Below are positions 13-22,914 of a stretch of 24,000 nucleotides of DNA, one piece after another. Source of the stretch: an uncultured Gammaproteobacteria bacterium (GTDB lineage: Bacteria > Pseudomonadota > Gammaproteobacteria > Thiohalobacterales > Thiohalobacteraceae). A model generated the notes under the pieces. The model did no database searches. It worked only from the letters and a program-made list of their open reading frames with translations, and had not been told where the DNA came from. The stretch lies in NCBI GenBank assembly GCA_963707015.1, contig CAVPOO010000009.1, positions 1 through 24,000 on the forward strand. Direction: 5' to 3'. The position numbers and the translations under genes were made by a program. Each line of letters starts with the position of its first letter. Position 1 is the first letter of the stretch.

Positions 13-3000
13 GTGAAAAACCAAAGAGTAATCCAGGTCTTCGTCGGCTCACCGGGTGACGTGGCTGAGGAACGCAGGCGCGCTTTCGAAGTTATCGAAC
101 GCATCAACCGCGACGCGCTGCTGCCGCCGGGCTGGCGCTTCGAGGGGGTGGGTTGGGATCAGACGCATTACCCCAAGCTCGCCTGGCTTTCGCCGCAGGA
201 AGCGATCAATGAGGGCATCTCGCGGCCGGGCGATTGCGACATTGCCGTGTTCATATTCTGGAAACGCGTGGGTACGCCCTTGCCGCCGGGGAGGTTTACC
301 GAAAACGGCGCTGGACCGGAGGCTACCGGCAGCCTGTGGGAGTTTTACGATGCGATGGAGTCGGCCAAGAAGCCCTGGGTCTCGGTCTATCGCTGTGAGC
401 GCACGCCCGAGATGACTGAAAAAGATTTCGAAGATCCCGTCGGGTTTGGTACACAGGTTAAGGCCGTTAAGGACTTATTCCTGGGTTTTCAGGATGGCGA
501 GGGCCGGTACCGCGCCGGCTACCAGGGTTACGCCGATGCGAATGATTTCGCCCAGCACCTCGAACAGGATCTGAAGTCATTCATCAAGCGCCAGACATCG
601 CCTGAAGCCAAAGCCGCGGACACCCGCAAAGCGAAGGCCCCGCAGACGGAGCGCGTGCCTGCCGCCTATCTGCAGCGCCTCAAAGAGAGCGTTGCGCGCG
701 TCGAGCTGCTGGGCCTGGATCTCAAGGAAAGTATCACCAACGGTTTACCGCAGGTCTATGTGCCCGCAGTGACGACCAGTGCGACGGAGAAACCCGAGGC
801 TGACCAGCCGTTCGAGCGCGATCGGCGCGAGCTTATCCTGCACCGCCTGGGTGAAAGCTCGCTCTATCTGCCAGGCGATCCGGGGAGCGGTAAGTCCACC
901 TTCAGCCAGTGGGTGGCCTATGTGGTCGCTCACGGTGCCGTCCCACCGCATGAAATTCCACCGCCCGAGGAGCTGCAGGAACGGCTGCCGGACAGCCTGC
1001 TGGGCCGGCTGCCTGTCCTGATCCGGTTGCGCGATTTCTGGGGGCATATGGGTTGCGAGCCTGAGCAGGGTGACTGGCGTCAACGCGAGCTGGAGACGGC
1101 GATCGTCCATTGGCTGGACAAGACGCAACCCTTTGGTCTGACCGCAAGCAGTTTCGAACGCAATCTGGGCGAGGGCAAGCTGTTGCTGCTGCTGGACGGC
1201 GTGGACGAAGTGCCTGAGGAACACAACATCGGTGGCCGCACAGTCTATCCCCGCCATGCGCTGCTCACCGGGCTGGCCGACGCCTTGCCGCAATGGCAGC
1301 AACAAGGCAACCGCATCCTGGTTACCAGTCGGCCCTATGGCCTGCGGGCCGCCGAACGTAATCGGCTCAAGCTGCCGGAAGCCGGTTTGCTGCCGCTGGA
1401 CGAGGATCTGCAGCGCTTGTTCACGGCACGCTGGTACGCGGCTGCCGACCACGCCAATTGGGAGCGCCATGCGAACGGCCTGGCCGAGGAGTTGCGCAAT
1501 AGAGAGGAGCTCTACGAGCTCCGGCGCAATCCGCTACTGCTGACCGCGCTGTGCGTCAAGTACAAGGAGGGCAAGCGCCTGCCGCAGGATATCTACCACC
1601 TCTACGACAGCGTGGTGAATCAGGTCCTGTTCAATCGCTTCCGCGGCAGCGACCGGGAGCGTACCCGGGTACGCTGGCGGCTGGAGGCCGTGGCGCTTGG
1701 GATGCATTATGGTATTGATGACGAATCCGTGCGTCCTGCGCCGCTGGCTTCCGTCGATCTGGACGAACTGGATCGCATCCTCGCCCGCTACGCCGAACAG
1801 AACCCCGGCACCGAGGGCGGGGCCGCCCTGGTGTTGGAACGGCGCGATGAGTTGCTGGAGAGGTCCGGACTGTTACTTGCCCCGGGGCGAAAAGAAGGCC
1901 GAGTTCTATCACCAGGACTTTCGCGACTACCTGGCGGCCGAGCGCTGGGCGCGCGAGCAGCGCTCGCTGGAATCCGCGTTACAGGGCTACGGGGCGAATC
2001 GGGACTGGCGGCGTATGCTCGGTTTTCTGTTCGCCAAGGTGATCGAATCGTCGGGTGGGGTCGACCGACCGTTGCGGGCGCTGGCAGGGCTCAAGGAAAA
2101 GACGTCACGAGACGCGCTGGCAAGTGAGGCGGCCGCGGCCGTGCTGCTGGCGGATTGTCTGGAGATCGCGGCGGGGAAGGCGCGCGAAGGTGGTCTCGCT
2201 GGTGACTGGGTCGACCGCTTTCGGCGGATTTGCACAGACAGTCTGGACGTTGTGCCTGCTGCGGTCGACCGCAACGCCCTGTTTCTGGCCCTCGGCCGGC
2301 TCGGTTGGGACAACCGCCGGGTGTCGGGCTGGACGCGCAGGGCAGGCCCGGTATCGTCTGGCTACCGGTGCCGAACGAGGAGGCCCCGGGTTCTACATTG
2401 CCCAGTATCCGGTCACCCAGGCACAGTTTCAGGCCTTTATCGATGCTGAGGATGGCTATGCGGACCCGCGCTGGTGGAAAGACTTCGACGAGCGCAAGGG
2501 GAATCCATGGAAACCCACCTGGCCGGAACCGAACGCGCCGCGTACCGATGTCGACTGGTTCGAGGCGGTCGCTTTCTGTCGCTGGCTGACTCATTGCGGG
2601 CACGCCCCCACCGCTGGCTGGCAGATCCTGCTGCCCACCGACGAACAGTGGCGACAGGCCTATGTCGGTGAGGGGAAGAGCGAATTTCCCTGGACGGGGG
2701 AGCCTGACCCGAATCGACACGCCAATTATCGGGATACGGGCCTGAAACGCACCAGTGCCGTGGGGGTGTTCCCTGACGGCGTGGCCAGCTCAGGCGCTCT
2801 GGACATGGCCGGTAACGTCTGGGAGTGGTGTCTTGAAAAGTACGACTTGGACACAGGTAGGGTTGGACCTGCCATGATCGATGCGGCGAATGATCGGCGC
2901 GTGTTGCGCGGCGGGTCCTGGTCCAACGCTCCAGGCGACCTGCGTTCCGCCCCTCGCTTCGGGCGCGACCCCGTCGACCGCCGCTACTACCTCGGTTTTC

Positions 3001-3038
3001 GGTTGGTTTGCCGCCCCCCGTCTTCCACTGATCACTGA
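13..3038 (+). pseudogene. DGR target 1: NLR-like STAND protein (N-terminal TIR-like/DUF4062-like domain, NACHT P-loop NTPase, C-terminal FGE-sulfatase/C-type-lectin-fold domain carrying VR1), broken by three frameshifts
   Basis: The N-terminus VIQVFVGSPGDVAEER...DIAVFIFWKRVGTP resembles Rossmann/TIR-like domains fused to STAND NTPases (assignment from memory). Walker A is GDPGSGKST (nt 874-900) and Walker B is LLLLLDGVDEV. The NACHT-typical EFYHQDFRDYLAA motif appears only in frame 2 after ~1885. GVGLDAQGRPGIVWLPVP appears only in frame 1, and the FGE domain (FYIAQYPVTQAQF...MAGNVWEW...RGGSW...GFRLVCRP) only in frame 3, ending at the stop at 3036-3038. The GTG start at 13 is uncertain because the frame is open to the window edge. 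Confidence 0.8.
2904..3019 (+). repeat. DGR variable repeat VR1 (3' end of target 1)
   Basis: Colinear with the reverse complement of 8452-8568. By hand alignment, 21 of 29 TR adenines in the central tract are substituted and no C/G/T positions in that tract are changed. The A-free 3' segment TCGGTTTTCGGTTGGTTTGCCGCCC is identical to TR. Confidence 0.9.
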
Positions 3039-3061
3039 ATCCTGAGTGCTGTTCACTGATC
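3030..3061. other. Imperfect hairpin just downstream of VR1 (GATCACTGAA / 12-nt loop / TTCACTGATC, one C-C mismatch), conserved downstream of VR2 at 8720-8751
   Basis: The arm sequences are identical at both VR flanks and the loops differ at 3 positions. The hairpin overlaps the target 1 stop and the RT stop codon. Confidence 0.35.
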
Positions 3062-3508
3062 GGCCGCGCGCTTGTTGCGTGCGGCCAGGCGCTGGAAAAC
3101 GGTCTTTCGCAGTCCCCAGGTGTCCGCAAACCGGACGTGGTTTACCCAGCCGCTCACTGACGCATCAAGTTCTGCAAAGGTAATTTGCCCCTCGTGCCAG
3201 GCGTCGTAGCGTTGCGCCAGATGGCGGGTCGCATACCGTGCCTTGCGCGCCTTGAGTTTGCGGTGGTCGGGATAGACCACAAAGCCCAACCAGGGCGTCC
3301 CGCAGCCGGTTGGCGCGACCTGGCAGGCGGACTGATGAATGCTCAGTCGATAGCGTGCGAGGCGATCGATGAGGGCTTCTTTCCAGTACCATAGCTGCGT
3401 CTTATCGTCACTGAAAAGCGCGAAGTCATCGACGTAACGCAGGTATGCGCTACAGCCCAGCTCGCGTTTCACGAAGTGATCGAACGGGTCGAGATAGCAG
3501 TTCGACCA
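3053..3508 (-). pseudogene. DGR reverse transcriptase, C-terminal fragment (palm YxDD motif plus thumb)
   Basis: Translation is WSNCYLDPFDHFVKRELGCSAYLRYVDDFALFSDD... through to the stop at 3053-3055. It joins in frame to the N-terminal fragment at 7275-7898 once 3772 nt are removed. Confidence 0.88.
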
Positions 3509-3528
3509 ATATGGCGTGCACTTCATAT

Positions 3529-3564
3529 TGGTCGGTATGTTGGGTTTATGAATATGTGGCGTAC
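3529..3564. repeat. Left terminal inverted repeat of the RIT-like element
   Basis: TGGTCGGTATGTTGGGTTTATGAATATGTGGCGTAC is the reverse complement of 7245-7280 with one mismatch. Confidence 0.9.
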
Positions 3565-3680
3565 GCTACCCATAGACGGCAGCATGCCTTGGGAGATCAA
3601 GTCGTTTTACTTGTGAAGCCGATTGGTTGACTCGACATATTGCTGCCACCTTTTGAACGGTGAACGCGAAGGAGGGCAGT

Positions 3681-4925
3681 ATGCCAAAGACTTACTTCAA
3701 GTCCGCCCCTACAGGGCCACACTCTGACACTGAAGCTGCCGGCCATTATCTGGCGGCTTTCCGACAGTGGCTTGAGCAGAGTGGTTACCGGCCGGAAACG
3801 ATACGCGGCCGCTTGCGCGGAGCAGCTCAGTTTGTCACCTGGGCCGAGGGGAGCGGCGAGGCGCTCGCGCAGTTTGACGAGGTGCTCCTTAGCGCCTTCG
3901 GACGATACTTGGCCCACCGCGGCCAGTTGCAGTACCCAAACGGTATCCGCACGGTTCGATTCCTGGGGGCTCGGCTCTTTGTCACGTTCTTAGCCGCGCA
4001 GGGGATCACGCCACCGTCGAGCAAGGTTTCGGCCACCCCCTCAATGCCTGGACTACTTGTCAAATTTTGCCACTGGATGCGGACGCAGCGCGGTGTGAGT
4101 GAGCCGACGCTTAGCAACTACACCCCCATCCTGCGGGACTTGCTGGAGACCCTCGGTGACCAAGCCGAGCTGTTCACGGCAAAGCGACTGCGCGAGTTTG
4201 TCCTAAATCACGTACATCGCCATGGCAAAGGCCGAGCGAAGGCGGTAGTCACAGCGGTGCGCATGTTTGCTCGCTTTCTAGGCGTCATCGGCTGGTGCGA
4301 GCCAGGATTGGAGCACGCGATTCCCACCATTGCGGAATGGCGCCTGCGGTCATTGCCGCGTTATCTGCCCACGGCGACGGTCGAGCACATCATTGCCGCT
4401 TGTGACGACACAACGCCTCAGGGTGTCCGCGACAAGGCGATGATCCTGCTGATGGCAAGGCTTGGTTTGAGGGCAGGTGATGTGGCGGGGCTGCGCTTTA
4501 CTGATCTGGACTGGCAAGACGGCACGCTGATGGTCATGGGTAAGAATCGCCGTCAGACACGACTGCCACTGCCGCAAGAGGTCGGCGATGCCCTGCTGCA
4601 CTATCTGGAATCGGCACGGCCAACAACGCCGTGCAAGCACGTGTTTATCACTGCCCGAGCCCCGCTGAAGCCTGTCACCAGACAGGCTGTCGGTCGCACG
4701 GCTGCCCGGGCGATCCAACGCGCTGGCATCGATGCGCCGTCGCTTGGCTCCCATGTCTTGCGCCACTCGGCGGCTACCACCATGCTCCGCCAAGGCGTTT
4801 CCCTGCAAGCAATTGGTGAAGTGTTGCGCCATGCCTCGCCAGAGACCACTGCCCACTACGCTAAAGTCGACCAAGCGCTGCTCAGGCAAGTGGTTGTACC
4901 CTGGCCGGAGGTGACGTCATGTTAA
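3681..4925 (+). CDS. Tyrosine recombinase/integrase, first gene of the trio (RitA position)
   Basis: An AAGGAGGG RBS sits before ATG 3681. Motifs are RLGLRAGDVAGLRFTDLDW and SHVLRHSAATTMLRQG...LRHASPETTAHYAKVD (R..HxxR..Y catalytic signature). Confidence 0.85.
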   Translation: MPKTYFKSAPTGPHSDTEAAGHYLAAFRQWLEQSGYRPETIRGRLRGAAQFVTWAEGSGEALAQFDEVLLSAFGRYLAHRGQLQYPNGIRTVRFLGARLFVTFLAAQGITPPSSKVSATPSMPGLLVKFCHWMRTQRGVSEPTLSNYTPILRDLLETLGDQAELFTAKRLREFVLNHVHRHGKGRAKAVVTAVRMFARFLGVIGWCEPGLEHAIPTIAEWRLRSLPRYLPTATVEHIIAACDDTTPQGVRDKAMILLMARLGLRAGDVAGLRFTDLDWQDGTLMVMGKNRRQTRLPLPQEVGDALLHYLESARPTTPCKHVFITARAPLKPVTRQAVGRTAARAIQRAGIDAPSLGSHVLRHSAATTMLRQGVSLQAIGEVLRHASPETTAHYAKVDQALLRQVVVPWPEVTSC

Positions 4926-5830
4926 TGCAAGCGGTTGAGACCTATCTGGCGGTGCGCCGTGCCGCTGACTTCGAACTCGAGGCGGCGGAGCGGTACTTGC
5001 GGGACTTTGCCCGCTTTGCCGGCGTCCACGGGGACCGCCACGTTTCCGCGAAAACGGCGATCGCGTGGGCCGGACTGGGCTCCTCGGAGATGCAGCGCGG
5101 CAACCGCTTACAGATAGTGATTCGCTTTGCGCGTTTTGCCCACTCCGATGACCCTCGCCACGAAATTCCGCCAGCACGCGTGTTCTGTCGGCGCTACTGT
5201 CGGCCGACGCCCTATATCTTCAGCCGATCAGAAATCGAGACGCTGCTAATCCAGGCCACGCGCTTGGGTTCACCCGGATCTTTTCGCTCGCACATGTACA
5301 CGATCCTTTTCAGTCTGCTGGTTGTTACCGGATTGCGGATCTCCGAGGCCTTGGCTTTGCGCTTCCAAGATGTGACCGAGGATGGTTTGGTGATTCGGCA
5401 GACCAAATTCCGTAAGAGCCGACTCGTGCCGGTGCATGAGACCACCGCTGCCGCGCTTCAGCGCTACTTGGTCAAACGAAACGAGGTGGCGCTTGATGAC
5501 GACCACCTGTTCGTCTCTCGGCAGCGCCACCCATTGAGTCACCACACCGTCCGAAAGACTTTCTATCAACTGTTAGCGGCTGCTGCCATTCCCCGCCGGC
5601 CAGGGGGTCCGCACCCACGGCTAATGGACTTTCGTCATACGTTTGCGACAAACGCGCTAATGACTTGTCCCGATGACCGGGACGCCATTCGCTCCCACAT
5701 GCTGGCGCTAAGCACTTACATGGGGCATGCCCGTGTCAAAAACACCTTCTGGTATCTGCAGAGTACGCCGCAGCTGCTGGGCGATATTGCCAGCGCTTGC
5801 GAGGACCGCCTCGGGAGGACCGACTCATGA
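4919..5830 (+). CDS. Tyrosine recombinase/integrase, second gene of the trio (RitB position)
   Basis: Motifs are VTGLRISEALALRFQDV, DFRHTFATNAL and YMGHARVKNTFWYL. The start codon overlaps the upstream stop. Confidence 0.85.
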   Translation: MLMQAVETYLAVRRAADFELEAAERYLRDFARFAGVHGDRHVSAKTAIAWAGLGSSEMQRGNRLQIVIRFARFAHSDDPRHEIPPARVFCRRYCRPTPYIFSRSEIETLLIQATRLGSPGSFRSHMYTILFSLLVVTGLRISEALALRFQDVTEDGLVIRQTKFRKSRLVPVHETTAAALQRYLVKRNEVALDDDHLFVSRQRHPLSHHTVRKTFYQLLAAAAIPRRPGGPHPRLMDFRHTFATNALMTCPDDRDAIRSHMLALSTYMGHARVKNTFWYLQSTPQLLGDIASACEDRLGRTDS

Positions 5831-7200
5831 CATCGATCGCACCGCACATTTCCGCATTTCTACGCGAGCACCTCCCTGTGCAACAGGGGGCAAGCGCACA
5901 CACTTGTGATAGCTACGCCTATGCGTTTCAGCTGCTGTTTGAATACACCAGCCAGCGCTATCAGGTCACGCCCTCAGCGTTGTACCTGGAGCAAATCGAC
6001 GCCCCGTTGGTGATGGATTTTCTGCACTACCTCGAAACCGAGCGACACAACAGCCCCCAGACCCGAAATGCGCGCTTGGTAGCGATCAAATCCTTCATGC
6101 GCTTTATCGAGCATCGGGTGCCCGCACTGCTAGAACACAGCCGGCGTGTGCTTGCCATTCCTATGAAGCGGACCGATACACGCTTGGTGAATTACTTGTC
6201 GGCGGGGGAAATGCAGGCGATTCTGAACGCGCCCGATCTCCAGAGGCGGGACGGCATCCGCGATCGCGCCATGCTCCATCTCTGCTTTGCCGCCGCTCTG
6301 CGTGTGTCAGAGTTGGTCAGTTTGCAGCTGCCCGCTGTAGAGCTCCATCCAACACCGCTTGTCCGGGTGCAGGGGAAAGGCCGCAGAGAGCGCGCACTTC
6401 CGCTATGGAAACAAACGGCCGTTGATCTGAGCGCCTGGCTGGCGGTGCGCGGCGATGCACCGACACCCGAGCTTTTTCTCAACGCACGTGGTTTGCCGAT
6501 AACCCGCTTCGGCTTCGAGTACATCCTGCGTAAACACGTCCGGGCGGCAGCAATGGGTTGCCCCTCGCTCAACAACAAGCGTATCTCTCCCCACGTGTTG
6601 AGACACTATGTGGCCTCCCGGACTATGTGGGGTAAAGTCTTCACATTCGACGGCAATTCGCAGAATTTCAGTGGATTACCTCTGCAAGCGATGCGTGTGT
6701 AGACGACATAAATTGGTGCGTTTCTCGAGCGCTTCTTCGACACTTGCCCACCGCCCGGAAAGAAGTGAGGTCCAATAGATACGAGATTCATAGGGTTCTG
6801 GACCATCGGCCCTTGTCATCTCGGTGCAACCCTCGGCTTTGTGTCTTCCGAAACAGCGCCGGACTATGTCGCTGCCGCCGAGCGCATTCAGCGGAAAAAC
6901 AGGGTCTGAAACGAAGTACGCTACATAGTCCGGGAGGCCACATAGTGTCTCCTATGTAGCCGGCTACATAGGCGCCACTCAAGCGCCATGCTGGTGCTGC
7001 AGGCCACAGGAGATCTCCGCAAGGTTTCGCTCTGGTTGGGACATGCCAGTATGCAAACTACGGAGATCTACTTGCGTGCAGATCCCACAGAGAAACTTAA
7101 CGCCATTGAAGCGGTACTACCACCGACGCTCAGACGAGGTAAATTCCGGCCACCGGATAAGCTGATCGCCAGCCTAAGGGGGGACACCGAAATATGTTGA
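5827..7200 (+). pseudogene. Tyrosine recombinase, third gene of the trio (RitC position), interrupted by a 372-bp insertion
   Basis: The N-terminal part ends ...ISPHVL at 6600. The C-terminal part resumes at 6973 in the same frame (RHSSAMLVLQATGDLRKVSLWLGHASMQTTEIYLRAD). The intervening 6601-6972 contains stop codons. Removing it gives a 333-aa protein. Confidence 0.85.
6601..6972. mobile_element. MITE-like non-autonomous insertion with 28-bp perfect terminal inverted repeats plus an adjacent 22-bp perfect palindrome
   Basis: AGACACTATGTGGCCTCCCGGACTATGT (6601-6628) is the exact reverse complement of 6923-6950. CCTATGTAGCCGGCTACATAGG (6951-6972) is self-complementary. No convincing ORF lies inside, and the element splits the recombinase HVLRH box. 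Confidence 0.7.
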
Positions 7201-7244
7201 GTCATCGGAGCCGAAATCCCACTGAAACCGGCTCGAACAACAAT

Positions 7245-7280
7245 GTACACCACATATTCATAAACCCAACATACCGACCA
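7245..7280. repeat. Right terminal inverted repeat of the RIT-like element
   Basis: GTACACCACATATTCATAAACCCAACATACCGACCA is the reverse complement of 3529-3564. Confidence 0.9.
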
Positions 7281-7898
7281 GAACTGAGAGGTGAGGTTTC
7301 CGATCGGCAGGCCGCGCGGTCGACACGCGGCCAACAGGTCATCGCCCGGGAACCACCGCATTCGATACTCCTGCTCCAATACACCCTGACCGGATGCGAC
7401 GATTTTTTCAATCAGTGGCGCGACGGAAGCGTCCGGCAGCCTGCGGGTCAGCGTTCGCAGCAGGATCTCGTGGTCGATCGCGGCGAAGTGCTGAACGACG
7501 TCGGCGCGCAGCACATAGGGATAGCGCTGCGCGAAGCGCTGAAATCGATCGATTGCGCGGTGCGTTCCTTTACCGCACCGGTTGGCGAAGCTGTCGTCAA
7601 TGAAGCCGCGTTCGAACAAGGGTTCGATCACGTTACACAGCGCGTGGTGCACCACCCGATCGCGAAACGGTGCGGCGCTGATCTTGCGCCGTTTCGGCTC
7701 CTGAATATGGAAGTGCTTATACCCGCCGGGTAGATAAGTACCGGTTTCCAGTTCAGCCTGCAGGACAAGCAGCTCATCGGCGAGCCTCGCCTCCAGCCGT
7801 GCGGTGCTCGATTTGCCGCGTTTCCCCTTTGCGGCCTTGCGAAAAGCCAGCAGCAGGTTGTCCCATTGAATGACTTGATGCAACAGGGAGTCTGTCAT
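7275..7898 (-). pseudogene. DGR reverse transcriptase, N-terminal fragment (RT motifs 1-4)
   Basis: Translation is MTDSLLHQVIQWDNLLLAFRKA...KRRKISAAPFRDRVVHHAL...LRADVVQHFAAIDH...RGLPIGNLTSQFWS. The (I/L)GxxxSQ motif is the DGR-clade hallmark. The ORF then reads into the RIT inverted repeat. Confidence 0.9.
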
Positions 7899-8259
7899 GG
7901 CCGAGCCACTCGTAATTCAAAGCCGAATGTTCGATCTGTTGGTGTGGTTGTTACCCAAAGCGGAGCAATTCCCCAAGGCCTACCGATTCACGCTGACCCA
8001 CAGACTAATGAATGCCGCCCTGGATCTTCAGGATGCCCTGGCCGAGGCGGAGACCAGCCGTGGCCAAGTCAGGCGTCGGGCGCTGTCAGCCGCGGACCGG
8101 CATCTTGCCCGATTACGGATCTACTTGCGGCTGGCACACCATTGGCAGTGGCTGAGCAGTGGTCAGTATGAACACGTCAGCCGTATGGTGCTGGAAATCG
8201 GGCGCTTGCTCGGCGGCTGGCTGAGAGCCGAGCAGCGGGGGATGGGCGGCTCCGGGTAA
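7897..8259 (+). CDS. avd: Avd-like accessory variability determinant (four-helix-bundle, 23S rRNA IVS protein family)
   Basis: The 120-aa product has ...LLPKAEQFPKAYRFTLTHRL...ADRHLARLRIYLRLAH...LEIGRLLGGWLR, which resembles the bAvd pattern. Its ATG overlaps the RT ATG head-to-head (CATG at 7896-7899). Confidence 0.8.
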   Translation: MAEPLVIQSRMFDLLVWLLPKAEQFPKAYRFTLTHRLMNAALDLQDALAEAETSRGQVRRRALSAADRHLARLRIYLRLAHHWQWLSSGQYEHVSRMVLEIGRLLGGWLRAEQRGMGGSG

Positions 8260-8451
8260 ACAGGACCGAGGGAGCCGCCCGCTTTGCTATGCGCCCGAGG
8301 CAGAACCTGCGGACGGGACACGCCTGCGCCATCTTTCATGATGCCTGCCTCGGCCCGCAACCCGTGAGCGGCGGACATTACCGGAAGCTGTACAGGCTCG
8401 TAAGTCCGTACAGCCCGCCCTGCGATAGGCTGCAGGGCCAGGTGGCGATAG

Positions 8452-8568
8452 ATGTGGGCGGCAAACCAACCGAAAACCGATGTTGTTGTTGCGGTTGTCG
8501 GGGTTGTTCCTGTTGCGATTGGCGGAACGCAGGTTGTCTGGATTGTTGTTCCAGGACCCGCCGCGCAA
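8452..8568 (-). repeat. DGR template repeat (TR)
   Basis: The minus strand reads ...[37 protein letters not shown] with 29 adenines, mostly in AAC codons, in the central tract. It is colinear with VR1 and VR2, and all tract differences fall at these adenines. Confidence 0.9.
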
Positions 8569-8663
8569 AACGCGTCGTGCCAAAAACCAGGCGGCCCCAC
8601 GGTAGGCCCCATCAATGAGGCTTTCCGCGCCATGATGTTGCCGTAGTTTGGCTGATGAGTAAA

Positions 8664-8699
8664 CCAAAAAAATCGCGAGCGGGGCGCTGCGCGCCCCGC
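8664..8699 (-). terminator. Rho-independent-type terminator between target 2/VR2 and TR
   Basis: The GC hairpin GCGGGGCGC-(GCA)-GCGCCCCGC is followed on the minus strand by TCGCGATTTTTTT. Confidence 0.6.
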
Positions 8700-8742
8700 C
8701 ACACGCCGCTGCCGCGGCGTATCAGTGAACAGCAACCAGGGT

Positions 8743-11501
8743 TCAGTGATCAATGGAAGAATGGGGGCGGCAAACCAACCGAAAACCGATGAAGCTGCCG
8801 CGGACGCCGGGGTAGTCCCCGCCGCGAGCGGCGGAACGCAGGAGGTCTGGATCGCCTTCCAGGACCCGCCGCGCCAAACGCGTCGGTCGCAATCGCCGCT
8901 GTCTTCCTCCAGCCAGGCGCGCCCATCCTCGGGTGCATCGGTATAGCTTTCGTGCCAGCAGTCCTCGACCCATTCCCAGACATTGCCCGCCATGTCGTGG
9001 AGGCCGAAGTCATTGGGCGGTGTTTTTCCCACCGGCCAAGTGCGACCTCCACTGTTGTCTGAAAACCACGCGTAATTCTCGGCGGCCGCTTCATCGTTGC
9101 CCCAGTACCAAGGTGTCTCGCTTCTGGCACGCGCGGCGTACTCCCATTCGGCCTCGCTCGGCAGACCGCAGGTGAGCCCGTCGGTTGGGTCTGACAGCGC
9201 TTGTGCATAGGCGCGTGCCTCATCCCAACTCACATTGATGACAGGGCGGTCGCCGCGACCCCAGTTCTCGTCCTCTGGCAGGCGTTCACCTTTGCTGAGC
9301 GCATAGGCATCATATTGGGCGAAGGTGACCTCGTGTTTTGAGATGTAGAATTCCTGCAGGCAGACCTCGTGCGGTGGCTCTTCATCCGGGGCACCGCTAC
9401 CTTTCGGCGAGCCCATTTGGAAGCAGTCGGAAGCTTTGTCAGGGGGAAGCTTGACGAGCGTCGGCCTATCCGGCCAATCGACCAAAAGGCGCCAGTGGAC
9501 GATCACTGTGGACCAATCCGCCTCAGCCGTCGTTGCGTCCCCCTGACGGCGTTTCAGCCACAACGCCCCTTCGGCAAGGAACCCGCCCACCAGCAGCACC
9601 AGCGCCAGCAAGAAGACAGTCAAGCGCAGGTTGCGTTTCTTTTGCGACACGCTGGCATCGAGATAGGCCAGGGTCTCGCTATCAGCTCCGGGACGGTGCG
9701 CCGCGAACTTGCGCAGTTCGCGGCCACGGGCCAGCGGGACGGTGTCCGGGTCCTTATGCCAGGCGCTGGCCTGTTGCTCCAGGCGGGTGCGGGTTGCCAG
9801 GAAATCTGTGTGCTCGATCCGCTTCCAGAGCGTCGGCCAGTAGGGTTCGCCTTTGGGATTGGTACGCAAAAGGGTTTCATGGATCAGGTCCACCTGGTCG
9901 TCGTCCCGGTTCTCGGACTCCGCGGGCGAGATCAGCACCAGGCGCACCGGAGCGCTTTCCTGCGCGCTCTCCTCCGGACCCGGGTGCCCGGAAAGTCGTT
10001 CCAGTATGGCCTCGCCGGGCTCACCGCCACCGGCGCTGGCTACCGCCTGGCGCCGGCTGATGCTGCGGCGGGCGTTGACGGTGTTGATGCCCGGCTCCAC
10101 CAGGGCTAGCAGCAGCCGCAGCGCTGGTTCCTTGCTTTGGTCACCGAGCCGTACCAGCAGACTGTCGGCGCTGCTGGCGAGTGCGCCACCCAGGCCGCCG
10201 ACCGTCTTGTAACGGGCGCGCTGCAGCACGCCGTCCGTGCCGGCGTCGTCGCACAGCAGGCGTAACAGGTTACTGACCAGCGGCAGTGCACCCGGCTCGT
10301 TACGGGCTTCGTCGATGATGTCCTCGGACAGTTGATCATCGCTGTACCGCAGGCCGGCCAGTTCCACGCTGCGCAGCACGATATCGCGCAGGCCGGCCTC
10401 GGTCACGGGCAGCAACTCATAATGGGCAGCGTTGTTGCGCCGTGCGTTCAAGCCGGGTGCGGTCTCGAACTGGCCGAGGAAATCGCTGCGCAGGGTGGTG
10501 ACGAGGTACAGGGGAAGATCATGGTTGTCGATCGCCTCGGCCAGGAGCTGATCGAAGCGTTGCCGCTCGGCTACCTTGTCACGGGTCAGGGTGAAAAGCT
10601 CCTCCAGCTGGTCCACGACCAGCAGCGGGAGCTGTTTCCGGCCTGCCGGCACGCATTCGGCGAACAGATGGGCGAGGCGAAAGTCCGTGTCACGCAGGCG
10701 CTGTTCGATACGCTCCGTCGGTTGCTTGCAGGCTCTGGCCAGGACCGCTGCCAGAGCGAAGAGGGGCGAGCGGCCGGGACGCATGACGCCCAACACCCGC
10801 AGACTTACATCAGTCGCCCCGAGATCGAGCCAGCCATTTTCGAGCGCCGGGATCAAACCGGCCCGGAGCAGGGATGACTTGCCCACACCGCTGTTGCCCT
10901 CGATGCGCAGCCAGCGAATCCGCCCGCCGTCGGCCTGCCGCTGGCTGAACTTGTCCAGCGCCGCGAGCAGATCGGTATGGCGACCGAAGAAAAAGGCCTG
11001 GTGCTCGCGCTCGAACGGTGCAAGACCGGGGAACGGACAGCGCCCCAGCTCGGGTGGCAGTTGCGGCTTACGGTATTCGCGGAACAGATCGGTGCGCAGC
11101 GCCGTGGCCAGCGAGGCGATCTGTGCGGCGTCTCGCGCGTCCTCGAGGCGATGGAACTGGAACAGGCTCAGGAAGGGCGGAACCCGATCATCGGGCGTAT
11201 CGTCCAGCAACACCGGGACGATCGGCAGGCGTGCCCTGGCGCTGCGGCTGAAGTGCCGCGACAAGGCTACACCGACTTCCGCCTGTATCCAGCCCGACAC
11301 GCCCTGCTGGCCGATCAGGACCAGGAAGGCCGCGCAATCTTTCAACTTGGCCTGCAGGACATCCTGCCACTGCGGCCCCAGCGGGATGTCGGCATCCCAC
11401 CACACGGTAAGGCCCGCGCCCTGCAGCGACTCGACAATGGCAGCCGTTGTGCCCTTATCGGCGTGGGCGTAGCTGACGAAGATGCTCGGTGGGGCCGACA
11501 T
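8743..11501 (-). CDS. DGR target 2: TIR domain + P-loop STAND NTPase + single transmembrane helix + FGE-sulfatase/C-type-lectin-fold domain carrying VR2 (frameshifted within VR2)
   Basis: The TIR domain reads IFVSYAHADK...WWDADIPLG...AAFLVLIG. Walker A is EGNSGVGKSS (nt 10875-10898) and Walker B is LLVVDQLEE. The TM helix LRLTVFLLALVLLVGGFLAEGALWL lies at nt 9555-9629. The FGE domain reads FQMGSP...HEVTFAQYDAY...MAGNVWEWVED...RGGSW. After the 1-nt deletion the proper C-terminus [32 protein letters not shown] lies in another frame and ends at 8743. Confidence 0.85.
8761..8876 (-). repeat. DGR variable repeat VR2 (3' end of target 2), with a 1-nt deletion relative to TR
   Basis: By hand alignment, 20 of 29 TR adenines are substituted. 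One base, the C of the first AAC codon, is missing between 8856 and 8857. The IMH-like A-free segment is identical to TR. Confidence 0.9.
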
Positions 11502-12124: not shown

Positions 12125-13138
12125 TTAGCCGAAGGCGCGTGTCACGTCGAACGCCTCCTGTCGCTTGAGCATGTGGTAGCAGGCCCGAGCCAGCTTGTTG
12201 GCGACCGCCTTCTTGGCAACCAGAATGTGGCTTTTTGCCTGCTTACGCTGGTAGTAACGTTTGATCTGTGGACTCCAGATGGCGCCATAATGCGCAGCCT
12301 CCATAAAGGCCCAGGCCAGGTATTTGTTGCCGTTCTTCTTGTTGCCCTGGCCCTTGTACTTGCCGTTGCTAAGTTTCTCGGATTTCACACAACGGGCATA
12401 GGAGGTATAGTGGCCGGGACTGGCAAAGCGTTGGATCGTGCCGGTCTCCAGGGCGATGGTGGATCCCAGGGCGGGGCCCACGCCCGGGATGCTTTGCAGC
12501 AAGCGGTAGCCCTCGCGTGGCGTGAGCTGTTTCTGGAGTTCACGCTCAATCTGGGTAATCGCCTCATCCAGCCAACGCCGGGCCTGGTGCGTAATCTGGC
12601 CACCCAGCAAAATAGGCGCTTCCAGGTAAGTCGCCAGCTGATCGCTCTCGAGCTTTTTGAGCGCATTGGCGCTCAGTCGCACGCCGCTATGGCGCGCAAT
12701 CAAACTTTGCAGGCTCATGTGATGCAGGGTCTTCTGCCTCACCAGCAGCAAACGTCGACGCAGCAAGTCACGCAGTGCACGTTCTTCCTTTGGATAGATA
12801 TACCCGGTCGGCAGAATGCCCAGTCGCAACAGATGGGCTAACTGCCGTGCATCCGAGAAGTCGTTGCTATACTTCAGTCCCGCATACTGGGGCATCGCGC
12901 CCGTATGCGCTAAGTGCACCTGGAAACCGGCGTCCATCAGCCCATCCACCAGCCAATACCAGTTATACGTGGACTCCACCACACACCCCGCCAACTCCGC
13001 CTGATACGTTCGCAACACGCCAATAATTATCGCCAGATCATTGGGTAACCGCTTCTCGTAGATCGTATTATCGTTCTCATCCAATATCGCAACCACGCTA
13101 TTATTGGAATGTAAGTCGATTCCGCAATACAGTGTCAT
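12125..13138 (-). CDS. IS110-family transposase (DEDD recombinase)
   Basis: The product runs from MTLYCGIDLHSNN at the N-terminus to ...LQSIPGVGPALGSTIALETG...RFASPGHYTSYARC...GNKYLAWAF..., the typical IS110/IS1111 family layout. The ORF is an intact 337 aa with an AAGGAG RBS. Confidence 0.9.
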   Translation of the reverse strand: MTLYCGIDLHSNNSVVAILDENDNTIYEKRLPNDLAIIIGVLRTYQAELAGCVVESTYNWYWLVDGLMDAGFQVHLAHTGAMPQYAGLKYSNDFSDARQLAHLLRLGILPTGYIYPKEERALRDLLRRRLLLVRQKTLHHMSLQSLIARHSGVRLSANALKKLESDQLATYLEAPILLGGQITHQARRWLDEAITQIERELQKQLTPREGYRLLQSIPGVGPALGSTIALETGTIQRFASPGHYTSYARCVKSEKLSNGKYKGQGNKKNGNKYLAWAFMEAAHYGAIWSPQIKRYYQRKQAKSHILVAKKAVANKLARACYHMLKRQEAFDVTRAFG

Positions 13139-13206: not shown

Positions 13207-13259
13207 GCTAGAGGATTATCAGAGGGGAATGGCCTTACTTGGGCGGCTCCCTAATCAAT

Positions 13260-13388
13260 GTAGGGTGGGTTAGGCACGCCGTTTGTGCCGTAACCCACCG
13301 GATGTGCCGGCAGGCACTCATTAAAAAATGCGTTGTGTTGCTCTGCAACGCCTGGTGGGTTACGCAAAAAGCGCCAACTCGCCCTTAC
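13260..13388. repeat. REP/MITE-like ~129-bp element, copy a
   Basis: The sequence is GTAGGGTGGGTTAGGCACGCC...GCCGTAACCCACCGG...CGCCTGGTGGGTTACGCAAAAAGCGCCAACTCGCCCTTAC. It is near-identical to 18971-19099 and its ends are inverted (GTAGGGTGGGTTAG / CTAACCCACCCTAC-like). Confidence 0.8.
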
Positions 13389-14871: not shown

Positions 14872-16329
14872 ATGGCTAACAATCATCACGGCATGCTTCC
14901 CTTCAAGGGACTCGGACACTTATGCACAGTGAGTCCGTTTCGCGCGGGTCGTTTTGCCCGTCTGTTTCCAGACTTACCCCCGTTGTATATCGATCCACTG
15001 ATCCTGCATGAGCTCGGTAAGGCGGGCGGTAAAATGGAGGACAAAGGCGCGCCCAATCTCACCAACAACACGCCCACGGGTATGGTCTTCTTTGGGCAAT
15101 TCATCGACCATGACATTACGCTCGACGATAGTTCATCGCTAACAGCCTCCAATGATCCGGCGAGCACAGAAAATGTGCGCACACCGACCCTCGACCTTGA
15201 TTGTGTATATGGCGATGGTCCGGGGGCGCATCCCTACCTTTATGATGGCGCTGGAAAGCTGTTAACCGGCAACGACTACCCGGCGTCACTTATTCCGAAC
15301 TGGCAAAATCAGGATGACCTGCCGAGAACGCCAAAAGGTACAGCGATCATAGGTGACCCGCGCAACGACGAAAACCGCGTTATCTCGCAGCTGCAACTCG
15401 GGGTCTTGCGGTTTCACAATACAGTCGTGGACTTGCTATCTGCAAAGCCAAACCCTCCCTCCGGCTCACAGCTCTTCGAGGAAGCCCGTCAGATCGTAAC
15501 CTGGCATTATCAATGGATTGTGGTAAACGATTTTCTGCGGACGATGTGCGGAAACTGGGTTGTTGACGATATCTTCGCGAATGGCAGAAAGGTATACCGA
15601 CCCGAGTGCATGGGAATCAACGAACCCTTTATTCCCATCGAGTTTGCCACAGCGGTCTATCGCTTCGGCCATACGATGGTTCCTCAGAAATTCAGCGTGA
15701 AGCCAGGCCAGCCAAAACATGACGTATTCGGCTCGACGCTGGGAATCGGATTCAAGCCCGTAACCAGCAGTGACGAGGTTGTGGACTGGGCGGCGCTGCT
15801 GGATAGCGGTAATGGCCAATACGAGCGGGCCGGCAGAATGGACGTGAAACTGGCCAAGCTGCTTCTCGATCTGCCTTTCATGCCCCCGACGGTCCCGGCA
15901 TTTGAACGGTCTCTCGCAGTACGCAACCTGCTCAGGGCACAAAGCTTCCTGATTCCTTCCGGCGAGCAGATTGCGTCCGCCATGATGGCTGCTGGTGCGG
16001 ACGAGATTACTTCGGAGATGATCTCAACAGTTCGTGACGCCGGTGCAAAACTGGGCCTGCCCAAGGCAACCCCGCTATGGCTTTATATCCTTGCTGAAGG
16101 CAAAGCCGTTGGACGCATGGATGAAACCGCACAAGGTCAAAAGAAATTTGCCAAAGGCGAAGGGTTGGGACCGGTCGGCGCGCGTTTTGTAGCAGAGGTC
16201 ATCATCGGGCTTCTCGAACTTGATACGCGCTCTTTCATGGGTTCCAATCGCAATTGGTCGCCGGCCGATGAAGCGGATCTGTTCGGAGGAACCAGCGTAA
16301 CCACGCTCTATCAGCTTCTGACGGCATAA
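14872..16329 (+). CDS. Heme peroxidase (animal-type peroxidase/cyclooxygenase superfamily)
   Basis: Motifs are FFGQFIDHDIT, GDPRNDENRVISQLQL..FHN and AVYRFGHTMV. An AAGGAGAG RBS is present. Confidence 0.85.
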   Translation: MANNHHGMLPFKGLGHLCTVSPFRAGRFARLFPDLPPLYIDPLILHELGKAGGKMEDKGAPNLTNNTPTGMVFFGQFIDHDITLDDSSSLTASNDPASTENVRTPTLDLDCVYGDGPGAHPYLYDGAGKLLTGNDYPASLIPNWQNQDDLPRTPKGTAIIGDPRNDENRVISQLQLGVLRFHNTVVDLLSAKPNPPSGSQLFEEARQIVTWHYQWIVVNDFLRTMCGNWVVDDIFANGRKVYRPECMGINEPFIPIEFATAVYRFGHTMVPQKFSVKPGQPKHDVFGSTLGIGFKPVTSSDEVVDWAALLDSGNGQYERAGRMDVKLAKLLLDLPFMPPTVPAFERSLAVRNLLRAQSFLIPSGEQIASAMMAAGADEITSEMISTVRDAGAKLGLPKATPLWLYILAEGKAVGRMDETAQGQKKFAKGEGLGPVGARFVAEVIIGLLELDTRSFMGSNRNWSPADEADLFGGTSVTTLYQLLTA

Positions 16330-16358
16330 CGCGGCTAACCGCCCAACCAGGCGCTCAA

Positions 16359-16389
16359 CCGGACCTGCGTAAAAGCGGCGCAGGTCCGG
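16359..16389 (+). terminator. 11-bp perfect stem-loop downstream of the peroxidase gene (no U tract)
   Basis: The hairpin is CCGGACCTGCG-(9 nt)-CGCAGGTCCGG. Confidence 0.35.
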
Positions 16390-16513
16390 TCAGCGCCAAG
16401 TTGCGCGGCGCCGAGCCGTACGTGCGCGCGCTATGCTGACAAGGAGGGACGACACGTTTTTTCTGCGGGGACCGGCAAAAGGGAGCGGAGGGAATAGCGA
16501 GGGAAATCAAGCC

Positions 16514-17299
16514 ATGGTTTACCAGACGCCCGGTGTATACATACAGGAGATTTCTGCTTCTCCAGCTTCGGTCGTAGAGGTCGAAACGGCGATTCCCGCC
16601 TTTATCGGTTATACCGAAAAGGCGGAGGAGAATGGGGAGGATCTGACTAACAAACCCAAACGTATCAAGACCCTGGTCGAGTTCGAACAGTTGTTCGGTG
16701 GCCCGGCCCGCCCGAAGACACTCAGGGTGCGGCTCGATGCCGCCAACAGGCCTGACAGGGTGACCGTCGAGCATCACTACGTCTGGAAGGCACCGGCAAA
16801 TATAAGCCTGAATTCGGTCATCTCCCCGACGGTACCCATCAGTGATGCGGACCAACAGAGCCTCAACGTGGATGTGAATGCGGGAAAGTCCATCAACGCG
16901 ATACGCACCATTCCTGGCCGCGGTACGCTCATCTGGGGTGCGCGGACCCTGGCGGGTAACGACAACGAGTGGCGTTATGTCGCGGTGAGGCGTTTCTTCA
17001 ACATGGTGGAAGCGTCTGTCAAGAAATCCACCGCCTGGGTGGTGTTTGAGCCCAACGCGGCACCGCTCTGGACCAAGGTCAAGCACATGATTGAGAACTA
17101 CCTGATCCAGAAATGGCGCGAGGGTGCTCTGATGGGTGCCAAGGCGGAGCATGCCTTCTTCGTGAACATCGGTCTGGGTCAGACCATGACCGCCCAGGAT
17201 ATTGCTGAGGGGCGGATGATAGTGGAGATCGGCATGGCCGCGGTGCGACCGGCCGAATTCATCATCCTGAAGCTCATACACAAGATGCAGAAGTCCTGA
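16514..17299 (+). CDS. Contractile tail sheath family protein, unusually short (261 aa), without neighbouring tail genes
   Basis: The N-terminus MVYQTPGVYIQEISASPASVVEVETAIPAFIGYTEKA and the C-terminus RGTLIWGARTLAGNDNEWRYVAVRRFFNMVEASV...RMIVEIGMAAVRPAEFIILKL are typical sheath N- and C-terminal motifs. Confidence 0.75.
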   Translation: MVYQTPGVYIQEISASPASVVEVETAIPAFIGYTEKAEENGEDLTNKPKRIKTLVEFEQLFGGPARPKTLRVRLDAANRPDRVTVEHHYVWKAPANISLNSVISPTVPISDADQQSLNVDVNAGKSINAIRTIPGRGTLIWGARTLAGNDNEWRYVAVRRFFNMVEASVKKSTAWVVFEPNAAPLWTKVKHMIENYLIQKWREGALMGAKAEHAFFVNIGLGQTMTAQDIAEGRMIVEIGMAAVRPAEFIILKLIHKMQKS

Positions 17300-17357
17300 C
17301 CGGCAGAGTACGAGGGGCAGTGGGAAGCCGCCTGCTGGCGAAGGGATCACAGGGCAC

Positions 17358-17388
17358 TTATGAATAACGTGAGAAGCATCGGGCATAA
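17358..17388 (+). repeat. 31-nt copy of the start of the psiE-like gene (direct repeat of 22517-22547)
   Basis: TTATGAATAACGTGAGAAGCATCGGGCATAA compares with TTATGAATAACGTGAGAAGCATCGGACATAA, a single mismatch. Confidence 0.8.
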
Positions 17389-17412
17389 TAGTCCCTCCGT
17401 CTCCTTTTCACG

Positions 17413-17460
17413 GCTTCGCACCGCCTGGTGGGTTACGCAAAAAACCCTAACTCACCCTAC
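17413..17460. repeat. REP/MITE-like element, partial copy b (right half only)
   Basis: GCTTCGCACCGCCTGGTGGGTTACGCAAAAAACCCTAACTCACCCTAC matches the right halves of copies a and c. Confidence 0.75.
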
Positions 17461-18926: not shown

Positions 18927-18970
18927 CATGCTGCGGCACGGCTTTTGTGCCGGTGTGAACCACGATCGAG

Positions 18971-19099
18971 GTAGGGTTGGTCAGGCACGCCGTGTGTGCC
19001 GTAACCCACCGGCTGTGCCGGCAGGCACTCCCTCAGGGAACGCGTTGTGTTGCTTCGCAACGCCTGGTGGGTTACGCAAAAAACGCTAACCCACCCTAC
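18971..19099. repeat. REP/MITE-like ~129-bp element, copy c
   Basis: Near-identical to 13260-13388. It lies immediately upstream of the permease start. Confidence 0.8.
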
Positions 19100-22429: not shown

Positions 22430-22518
22430 TCGATTACGTGTCAGCGTGATCAGAGGCCCAACGAGCCGGTTCACGGGACAGCGTGAAGCTTCAAGTTAAC
22501 AGCGGAGAAGAATCCTTT

Positions 22519-22914
22519 ATGAATAACGTGAGAAGCATCGGACATAAAGCGCTGACCTGGATTCAGGACCTTGGGCTGCTGGTCATTGCAGTTTGCACGG
22601 TAATCGCCGGCGGGATCGAGATTGCATTCATGGTTGAAGCAAAGACCGTCAGGCTGGCGGACCTTCTGCTGCTGTTTATCTATCTCGAAGTGCTCGCGAT
22701 GGTAGGCATCTATCTTGATTCAGGAAAGCTGCCTGTGCGCATGCCGCTCTACATCGCGATCGTGGCACTGGCACGGTATCTGATTCTGGATATGAAAAAC
22801 CTGGACACCTGGAGAATGGTCGGTATCTCTGGCGCAACTTTGCTCATTGCGGTCGCTATCCTGGTCATTCGCTTTGGCCACACGCGATTTCCTTACGGCA
22901 AGGAGGAGGGCTGA
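22519..22914 (+). CDS. psiE: PsiE-family (phosphate-starvation-inducible) membrane protein
   Basis: LFIYLEVLAMVGIYLDSGKLPVRMPLYIAIVALARYLILD parallels E. coli PsiE [41 protein letters not shown] (comparison from memory). A GGAGAAG RBS precedes ATG 22519. Confidence 0.65.
   Translation: MNNVRSIGHKALTWIQDLGLLVIAVCTVIAGGIEIAFMVEAKTVRLADLLLLFIYLEVLAMVGIYLDSGKLPVRMPLYIAIVALARYLILDMKNLDTWRMVGISGATLLIAVAILVIRFGHTRFPYGKEEG

Follow-up and report, generated by a model that had tools for sequence, protein, structure and literature searches.

A reverse transcriptase gene interrupted by a recombinase-in-trio element in a probable, degenerate diversity-generating retroelement of an uncultured gammaproteobacterium

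Cellular diversity-generating retroelements (DGRs) of clade 5D, from bacteria that are multicellular or form aggregates, commonly have two targets, in which a STAND NTPase (NACHT or nSTAND1) is combined with a single C-terminal lectin domain; there are targets with uncharacterised N-terminal extensions and targets with TIR effectors, and degenerate loci occur (Dore et al. 2024, PMC10907252). In the reference genome of Thiohalocapsa PB-PSB1 a transposon interrupts the reverse transcriptase (RT) of DGR 3, intact variants coexist, and the variable repeats (VRs) are diverse despite the disruption; in the same organism the machinery is used in trans between loci, and the two targets of one locus are unequally diversified (PMC10907252). 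Here we describe a locus in an uncultured gammaproteobacterium of the Thiohalobacteraceae, contained in a window of 24,000 nt (contig CAVPOO010000009.1 of assembly GCA_963707015.1, positions 1 to 24,000), in which the RT gene is split by a recombinase-in-trio (RIT) element. With a probability of about 0.85 we regard it as a chromosomal, cellular-type DGR, degenerate here, whose diversification falls on the lectin-fold (FGE-like) domains at the C-termini of two STAND NTPases resembling NOD-like receptors (NLRs).

The resemblance to DGR 3 and DGR 6 of PB-PSB1 lies in the paired STAND-lectin targets, one with an uncharacterised N-terminal extension and one with a TIR domain, and in the position of the lectin domain beyond a transmembrane helix in one target. 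Sequences resembling MITEs (miniature transposable elements with inverted repeats) and transposons shape the PB-PSB1 loci as they do this one. On the other hand, the organism is a different one, a scan of GTDB species representatives having given no match, and the interrupter is a trio of tyrosine recombinases, whereas the published account says only 'transposon'. Judged from the architecture of its targets, the RT of the window would belong to clade 5D. Paired STAND-lectin targets with a transposon-interrupted RT are already published for PB-PSB1, and the RIT insertion is a gene disruption, not a new type of system.

The evidence for a DGR comes in the first place from the repeats. The template repeat (TR), VR1 and VR2 were realigned computationally in the coding sense between the anchors GCGGCGGGTCCTGG and TTTGCCGCCC. 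In the 109 nt between these anchors the TR, which is read from the minus strand, holds 29 adenines, and these take all of the substitutions of VR1 and VR2 (41/41). VR1, on the plus strand, has 21 mismatches, 21/21 on TR adenines (hypergeometric P 2.8e-16), eight of them A>G, seven A>C and six A>T; VR2, on the minus strand, has 20 substitutions, again 20/20 on TR adenines (P 2.8e-15), among which 13 are A>G, five A>T and two A>C. Fourteen of the 29 adenines occupy first and 14 second codon positions, and one is a third position (in CCA); no stop codon can be reached by substituting an adenine, and about 2.5e16 peptide variants are reachable. At the 3' end follows an adenine-free block of 25 nt, GGTTTTCGGTTGGTTTGCCGCCC, which is identical in TR, VR1 and VR2 and is present in exactly three copies in the window, where none would be expected.

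A first-pass annotation of this DNA had aligned the repeats by hand, and its counts (29 adenines, 21 differences in VR1, 20 in VR2), the lack of substitutions at C, G or T inside the tract and the identity of the adenine-free 3' end in all three copies are reproduced by the computed alignment. Its description of the divergence as strictly adenine-specific holds for the substitutions of the tract, but VR2 has lost a TR cytosine between 8856 and 8857 (TR GGAACAACAATCC, VR2 GGAA-GGCGATCC), and at the 5' edge of the homology each VR has one T>G, opposite TR 8569 in VR1 and TR 8567 in VR2. The repeats, which it had bounded at about 116 nt, were drawn too short, as the homology reaches about 15 nt further in the 5' direction (table 1).

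The RT is encoded in two parts. When 7898-7281 is joined to 3508-3053, a 357-aa protein results that reads IGNLTSQF/WSNCYLDPFDHF...YVDDF; the break falls at F206/W207, between IGNLTSQF and WSNCYLDPF, and 3772 nt (3509-7280) intervene. The nearest database relatives of the joined protein are uninterrupted proteins of 357 aa with 84-90% identity and 100% query coverage, which read through the break point (protein IGNLTSQFWSNCYLDPFD, DNA ...TSQFWSNCYLDPFD...). The joined RT contains the DGR-type motif 4, [I/L/V]GxxxSQ, in the form IGNLTSQ, together with YVDD. Among solved structures it matches best the RT in the bRT-Avd complex of Bordetella phage (8ub7-8ube, E 5.6e-45), compared with E 2.8e-18 for a group II intron RT and E 4e-12 for a retron RT. 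The NCBIfam models of group II (TIGR04416, 117 bits) and retron St85 (32 bits) RTs stay below their cut-offs of 300 and 235, and the Drt models score far under theirs. By these sequence and structure comparisons the RT is of the DGR lineage, nearer to DGR RTs than to those of group II introns or retrons, the two affiliations that the first-pass annotation had named as speaking against its interpretation.

Because the split lies between motif 4 (IGNLTSQF) and motif 5 (YVDD), neither fragment holds a complete active site, and an intact, expressible RT gene was not found at the locus. Judged from its coding capacity, the RT as encoded here cannot perform retrohoming; with the RT split as it stands, the adenine-only pattern is to be read as a record of earlier activity. 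That the two fragments together form an active enzyme seems to us scarcely credible.

The second protein of the cassette, Avd (accessory variability determinant), reaches 88.1 bits with NCBIfam NF033474 (DivGenRetAVD), above the curated cut-off of 80, and matches the second chain of 8ub7-8ube (named Avd; 8ub7 chain B) as well as Bbp7 (4dwl). Its gene is divergent from that of the RT, and at CATG (7896-7899) the start codons of both genes overlap, one on each strand, so that the promoter of each gene must sit within the other gene. With respect to avd, a transcript running from TR to RT would be antisense. Across 2800-9000 no sigma-70-like promoter was detected, and exact-product look-ups for Avd, for the open reading frame (ORF) of the N-terminal RT fragment and for a 1112-aa ORF that covers target 2 returned no entry. 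The RT with IGNLTSQ and the Avd that had been reported between the repeats are both present, but the RT is split by 3.77 kb and Avd is encoded on the strand opposite to RT and TR.

The sequence that splits the RT is, by the published definition of RIT elements (three adjacent tyrosine-recombinase genes of the RitA, RitB and RitC types with overlaps of 4-8 bp; PMC3414803) and as judged from its sequence, such an element. RIT elements were first described in Cupriavidus metallidurans CH34, and copies are present on Paraburkholderia plasmids (PMC3414803). In common with the known elements, the three genes are adjacent and overlap, here by 7 nt (4919-4925) and 4 nt (5827-5830), the length without the nested insertion is about 3.4 kb, near the roughly 3.5 kb of such a unit, there are terminal inverted repeats (36 nt, 97% complementary) and a palindrome lies at one end; insertion within other genes, namely a transposase gene and radC, is also known. 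The window element differs in being only 50-62% identical to the plasmid copies compared (RitB 51% and RitC 62% identical to the trio recombinases on Paraburkholderia plasmids), in lying within a DGR RT gene and in having its own ritC disrupted. In a literature search no report was found of a RIT or other tyrosine-recombinase element within a DGR RT.

The boundaries of the element can be drawn from the comparison of filled and empty sites. The hexamer cgacca (TGGTCG on the RT strand) stands at both junctions, at 3503-3508 and 7275-7280, and it is also the outermost 6 nt of both inverted repeats. TGGTCG is native RT sequence in the intact relatives (TTC TGG TCG AAC), and once the stretch from one hexamer to the other is taken out the exact RT frame is back. 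RIT-free sites are present in L020-L023 and L001; in the relative L023 the DNA is colinear across the insertion site, passing from window position 3496 straight to 7278. The palindrome ATATGGCGTGCACTTCATAT between the RT and the left inverted repeat provides an in-frame ATG (3526) to the ORF of the C-terminal RT fragment.

A further, MITE-like insertion of 372 nt is nested in ritC (...AGACAC/...CAC/TCAAGC); its inverted repeat reaches 7 nt into ritC, and a perfect palindrome of 20 nt, CTATGTAGCCGGCTACATAG, lies near its right end. When it is removed, the rebuilt RitC aligns without gaps across SPHVLRH/SSAMLVLQ to the Paraburkholderia protein. The same insertion is present in L017, a contig from another sample. 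It had no Rfam match at E<=1 and no other copy in the window, and the fetched loci show only the same locus. For the window as a whole, no Rfam family reaches its gathering score.

Table 1. Positions of the retroelement, its targets and the inserted elements in the window.
Feature	Positions	Strand	Remarks
Target gene 1	13..3038	plus	Uncharacterised N-terminal region, NACHT STAND NTPase, C-terminal FGE-sulfatase/C-type-lectin domain (Pfam)
VR1	2888..3019	plus	In frame, stop-free; 21 mismatches at TR adenines
Flank 3' of VR1	3020..3068	plus	Target 1 stop codon, predicted imperfect hairpin, then GC-rich hairpin
RT, C-terminal part	3053..3508	minus	WSNCYLDPFDHF...YVDDF...thumb; colinear with intact homologues
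RIT element inside RT	3509..7280	plus	3772 nt; 3400 nt without the nested 372 nt
Imperfect palindrome, 20 nt	3509-3528		ATATGGCGTGCACTTCATAT; between RT and left inverted repeat
RIT left inverted repeat	3529-3564		
ritA	3681-4925	plus	Phage_integrase match
ritB	4919-5830	plus	Phage_integrase match
ritC	5827-6606 and 6979-7200	plus	Phage_integrase match; interrupted
MITE-like non-coding insertion in ritC	6607..6978	no strand	372 nt; 35-nt inverted repeats 6600-6634 and 6917-6951
RIT right inverted repeat	7245-7280		
RT, N-terminal part	7281..7898	minus	Ends ...LPIGNLTSQF; frame analysis; RVT_1 match on the joined protein
avd	7897..8259	plus	Pfam bAvd, E 3.5e-20
Spacer directly 3' of TR	8262..8451	minus	190 nt; kept across six loci, the most distant with 65% RT identity
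TR	8452..8584	minus	Full extent of homology, from the alignment
Terminator-like hairpin	8678..8700	minus	Between target 2 stop codon and TR; 10-bp stem, 9 GC pairs, then T-run CGCGATTTTT
Flank 3' of VR2	8713..8760	minus	Includes target 2 stop codon 8750-8752
VR2	8761..8892	minus	20 mismatches at TR adenines and a 1-nt deletion
Target gene 2	8750..11501	minus	TIR, nSTAND1/NACHT NTPase, one transmembrane helix (aa 625-647, hydropathy), FGE-sulfatase/C-type-lectin domain (Pfam)
Uninterrupted RT (empty site)			...CTCACCTCTCAGTTCTGGTCGAACTGCTAT...
Circular or excised RIT junction (predicted)			CCGACCA-ATATGAAGTGCACGCCATAT-TGGTCGG

Two genes end in the VRs. As judged from their domain matches, the targets are a NACHT protein (VR1) and a TIR-nSTAND1-transmembrane protein (VR2). 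The FGE-sulfatase domain of target 1 (E 1e-37) has VR1 at its 3' end, and the N-terminal region of this protein has a weak match to PADLOC PDC-S60. The lectin domain matches the Treponema denticola DGR target TvpA (PDB 2y3c) through the C-terminus (E 4.9e-11). In TvpA, too, an FGE-type C-type-lectin fold carries the variable residues at its extreme C-terminus, but TvpA is a lipoprotein without NTPase or effector domains.

In the source assembly, as a three-frame reading shows, indels near 1876, 2319 and 2389 disrupt the frame of target 1. In L017 the corresponding region is in one frame, without the C at 1876 and with an extra C at 2319 and at 2389. The three indels of the window allele fall within a divergent block: L017:56-740 and window 1806-2489 differ by about 10% (70 substitutions, 50 of them in third codon positions and 48 synonymous), flanked by identical sequence, and from 2490 to 6341 L017 equals the window, VR1 included. 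This distribution indicates a recombination tract from a diverged homologue. Sequencing noise was considered as the source of the block and ruled out, given that 50/70 substitutions are at third codon positions.

In target 2 the single-nucleotide deletion in VR2 shifts the frame, so that the true C-terminus is out of frame with the upstream 880 aa. The public annotation gives an ORF of 1112 aa (11501-8163, minus strand), which passes in the wrong frame across VR2, the terminator-like hairpin, the TR and the antisense strand of avd; this call is an artefact of the frameshift. An identical protein is recorded from a 491,663-nt NCBI/ENA contig (P0125), and an independent assembly, on a 5.7-kb contig (P0248), has the same 1112-aa ORF and the same deletion. 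Since it occurs in two independent assemblies, the deletion is real and shared. The sole VR2 difference of P0248 is V889L (8835-8837), at a non-adenine position in the invariant LRSA block, and there is no variation at TR-adenine sites of VR2 between the two assemblies. By its sequence VR2 looks frozen and decaying. Target 2 has relatives in two JGI proteins (P0245 and P0247) of the same 90% cluster; they are 366 aa long and after about 340 aa pass into an out-of-frame transmembrane region (...WSWCSWLAGSLPKGCGG). They suggest a large internal deletion, and hence decay of target 2 in other populations too.

VR1 presents a different picture from VR2, on a comparison that rests on three haplotypes only. 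Three assemblies, those of the source contig, of L017/L024 and of L025, have exactly the same C-terminal RT fragment beside the RIT. In the 3.3 kb outside VR1, 2 single-nucleotide polymorphisms (SNPs) separate L025 from the window; within VR1 there are 18 differences, 18/18 at TR adenines (P 1.8e-13), and the VR1 of L025 is in frame. Position 2897, a TR-adenine site in VR1, varies between samples. L025 also differs at 2 non-adenine positions (2892-2893), at the end of the contig. At non-adenine sites the VR1 of L025 agrees with the TR of the window. The TRs of the relatives with RTs of 84-90% identity differ from the window TR at 2-4 non-adenine sites, and none of these differences is found in L025 VR1; the donor was therefore the window TR or an identical copy. 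The occurrence of a rewritten VR1 in nearly identical RT::RIT haplotypes argues that RT activity reached VR1 around or after the insertion, and from these sequences we infer that VR1 was rewritten at that time in a lineage that now carries RT::RIT, by some RT other than the one encoded here in its present state. Between the two assemblies that share the VR2 deletion avd has one difference, which is synonymous.

Directly downstream of the TR lies a spacer with an invariant block of 23 nt, GATGGCGCAGGCnnGTCCCGTCCGC, in all six loci compared. RNAalifold predicts 55 pairs in it, 17 of them with compensatory changes among the six sequences, and the spacer is likely, on this model, to be a structured, non-coding part of the DGR RNA. 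The similarity between VR1 and VR2 continues beyond the VRs into their 3' flanks as an inverted repeat. The flank of VR1 has DNA fold z-scores of -3.9 and -3.5, and the same flank of about 50 nt, with the stop codon and a predicted imperfect hairpin, follows every VR in L020-L023 and L027.

On the minus strand the order is target 2 with VR2, strong terminator-like hairpin, TR, spacer, reversed avd, N-terminal part of the RT, insertion, C-terminal part of the RT; target 1, on the plus strand, converges on the RT. The arrangement of TR, avd on the opposite strand and RT recurs in L020 (RT 84%), L021 (90%), L027 (89%), L001 (73%) and L002 (65%). Where the contigs of the relatives reach far enough, a convergent NACHT/FGE target lies past the RT and a second VR upstream of the TR, and the full layout (VR2, TR, reversed avd, RT, reversed target 1) is kept in L020, L021, L001 and L027. 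As far as these sequences tell, the divergent orientation of avd is ancestral to the subclade. The overlap of the avd and RT start codons is found also in L021 (888-889); in the other relatives about 13 nt separate the two, and in L001 about 120 nt. A local inversion of avd by the recombinases was ruled out as an explanation, given that RIT-free relatives share the layout including the overlapping start codons.

The nearest named RT relatives come from gammaproteobacterial metagenome-assembled genomes (Sedimenticola, Parahaliea, tubeworm and lucinid symbionts) and from Chloroflexota. A scan of GTDB species representatives with the rebuilt RT returned only relatives with identities of 73% or less, and a metagenome scan with the VR 3' flank returned one relative, L023, with 86-87% DNA identity and an empty site. 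The relatives P0001 and P0005, whose RTs are 89-90% identical, are from other samples and provide no evidence of a paralogue in the same genome.

The DGR of Bordetella phage BPP-1 (mtd-avd-TR-brt) is the reference for how such a cassette could work. The two systems share the adenine-specific transfer from TR to VR, an RT with [I/L/V]GxxxSQ, an Avd, a lectin-fold gene whose 3' end holds the VR, a 3' block without adenine that TR and VR have in common, and, past the VR, a flank prone to form hairpins. Unlike that of BPP-1, the window DGR lies on a chromosome and not in a phage, and its cassette has a target on either side, the two in inverted orientation. Its elements are arranged VR2-TR-spacer-(avd reversed)-RT, avd and RT being divergent, and it has a lectin domain of FGE type. 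TR and VR of the window, moreover, diverge completely beyond GCCGCCC and show no pair of initiation of mutagenic homing (IMH) and IMH* sequences with a few mismatches. In an intact cassette of this kind, TR and structured spacer would be transcribed from the minus strand, an RT-Avd complex would copy the TR-spacer RNA into complementary DNA (cDNA) with misincorporation opposite template adenines, and the cDNA would replace VR1 or VR2, guided by the shared adenine-free 3' block and the conserved flank 3' of each VR.

The TR/VR adenine pattern, the DGR-type RT, the Avd and the location of the VRs at the 3' end of FGE-sulfatase/C-type-lectin domains support the DGR interpretation given in the first-pass annotation. 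What it called the defining signature of mutagenic retrohoming stands as a footprint, but the cassette is not intact: the RT is split by the RIT element, VR2 is frameshifted and target 1, in this assembly, contains frameshifts. Several observations weigh against our interpretation as a whole. For retrohoming, for the 3' block serving as IMH and for a role of the flank hairpin, the argument is likeness to BPP-1. A search of 5.8 billion clustered proteins gave no intact allele of the RT (>90% identity), nor was a second DGR of this organism found. The coverage of L025 is about 3x, and as its VR1 and RIT junction are about 490 nt apart they might stem from different strains. The three frameshifts of target 1 occur only in the source assembly and in C/G runs, where assembly errors are possible.

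Accounts without a DGR can practically be set aside. That the three repeats are ordinary diverged ends of paralogous genes, or that the RT is that of a retron or group II intron, could draw on the weak, sub-threshold NCBIfam matches and on general similarity among bacterial RTs, but the mismatch spectrum (41/41 substitutions at TR adenines and likewise 18/18 between samples) refutes such accounts, and an Avd adjoining a DGR-type RT also speaks against them. The question that divides the other accounts is how VR1 could be rewritten beside a split RT; the activity may have come in trans from a paralogous RT, or from other cells of the population with an intact allele. It is possible, and we hold it tentatively, that the degenerate locus is serviced by an intact paralogous DGR RT elsewhere in the genome, which uses the local TR-spacer RNA and Avd on VR1, VR2 being no longer rewritten or no longer under selection. 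The 18 TR-adenine differences between RT::RIT haplotypes, with non-adenine sites matching the window TR, agree with this; so do the intact TR, spacer and avd (the sole avd difference between two assemblies being synonymous), the sharing of machinery in trans by PB-PSB1 loci of one class (PMC10907252) and the 10%-divergent tract of target 1 (1806-2489), which points to a diverged homologue in the population. However, no second RT of the organism was found and the nearest RTs (90%) are from unrelated samples; L025 VR1 lacks the TR variants of the relatives, so that a foreign RT would need exactly the window TR; and ongoing retrohoming into VR2 would mend its deletion, yet the deletion persists in two assemblies. 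Somewhat more doubtful is a polymorphic insertion, in which cells with an intact RT coexist and diversify in cis and the VR1 variants came to lie beside the RIT by recombination or chimeric assembly. Long reads have documented this very situation in DGR 3 of PB-PSB1 (PMC10907252), the contigs concerned have a coverage of only 3-5x, and there is evidence of recombination close to VR1; but the search of 5.8 billion clustered proteins brought up no intact allele above 90%, although the split C-terminal fragment is recorded in three assemblies.

A pure fossil, without present diversification, appears unlikely. Here the VR1 variants would be older than the insertion, and the RIT would have entered the same site (TGGTCG) independently or spread by recombination. 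The split RT, the broken ritC, a VR2 that is frameshifted and unchanged between assemblies, and the identity of VR1 in the window and L017 all fit such a history, and TGGTCG, present at both junctions and at the start of both inverted repeats, suggests that integration prefers this site. Nevertheless, the RIT copies and their junction differ by 2-4 SNPs whereas VR1 differs by 18 sites, so that a single insertion followed by rewriting of VR1 is more economical. We think it quite improbable that the RIT in the RT gene constitutes a recombinase-controlled on/off switch for targeted hypermutation and not just damage; were it so, it would explain the continued change of VR1 in a lineage whose reference allele is RT::RIT. 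The specific form of this idea, precise excision between the TGGTCG repeats that restores the RT and turns on hypermutation in some cells, is very improbable in our view. It has on its side the 6-bp direct repeat at the junctions, the exact frame of the intact homologues that removal restores, and the turnover of VR1 in an RT::RIT background. Against it, ritC is interrupted by 372 nt here and in L017 and excision would need RitC in trans, the mobility of RIT elements has not been demonstrated experimentally (PMC3414803), and no empty-site allele was found.

Elsewhere in the window are repeats, each about 60-130 nt long, whose two or three copies have 73-91% identity (13254-13385, 17400-17458 and 18965-19097), which contain CGCCTGGTGGGTTACGCAAAAA and the hairpin-prone GGTTAGGCACGCC...GCCGTAACC; one copy adjoins a gene for an IS110-family transposase (12125-13138). 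A separate repeat of 31 nt with 97% identity is located at 17358-17388 and 22517-22547. Both kinds are possibly REP-like (repetitive extragenic palindrome) or transposon-end sequences. An ORF resembling animal haem peroxidases (Pfam E 9e-26) lies in the region 14872-16329, and a plus-strand ORF of 288 aa (16433-17299) with a match to a phage tail-sheath C-terminal domain is contained wholly within a minus-strand ORF of 343 aa (16355-17386).

The locus, read as a degenerate chromosomal DGR, adds a well-resolved case to the recently described DGRs whose hypermutation falls on the sensor tips of NLR-like (STAND) immune proteins in bacteria, and it shows how a DGR cassette decays through nested insertions of mobile elements and through frameshifts. 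For RIT elements, the filled and empty sites define the boundaries to the base, the marks being a repeat of 6 bp, inverted repeats of 36 nt and a palindrome of 20 nt. If the locus is indeed serviced from elsewhere, a disrupted DGR would keep its TR, spacer RNA and Avd under selection by way of a distant RT acting in trans. The presence of the same RT-disrupted locus with differing adenine-patterned VR1 alleles in several public metagenomes makes it a test case in which trans-complementation can be set against population polymorphism.

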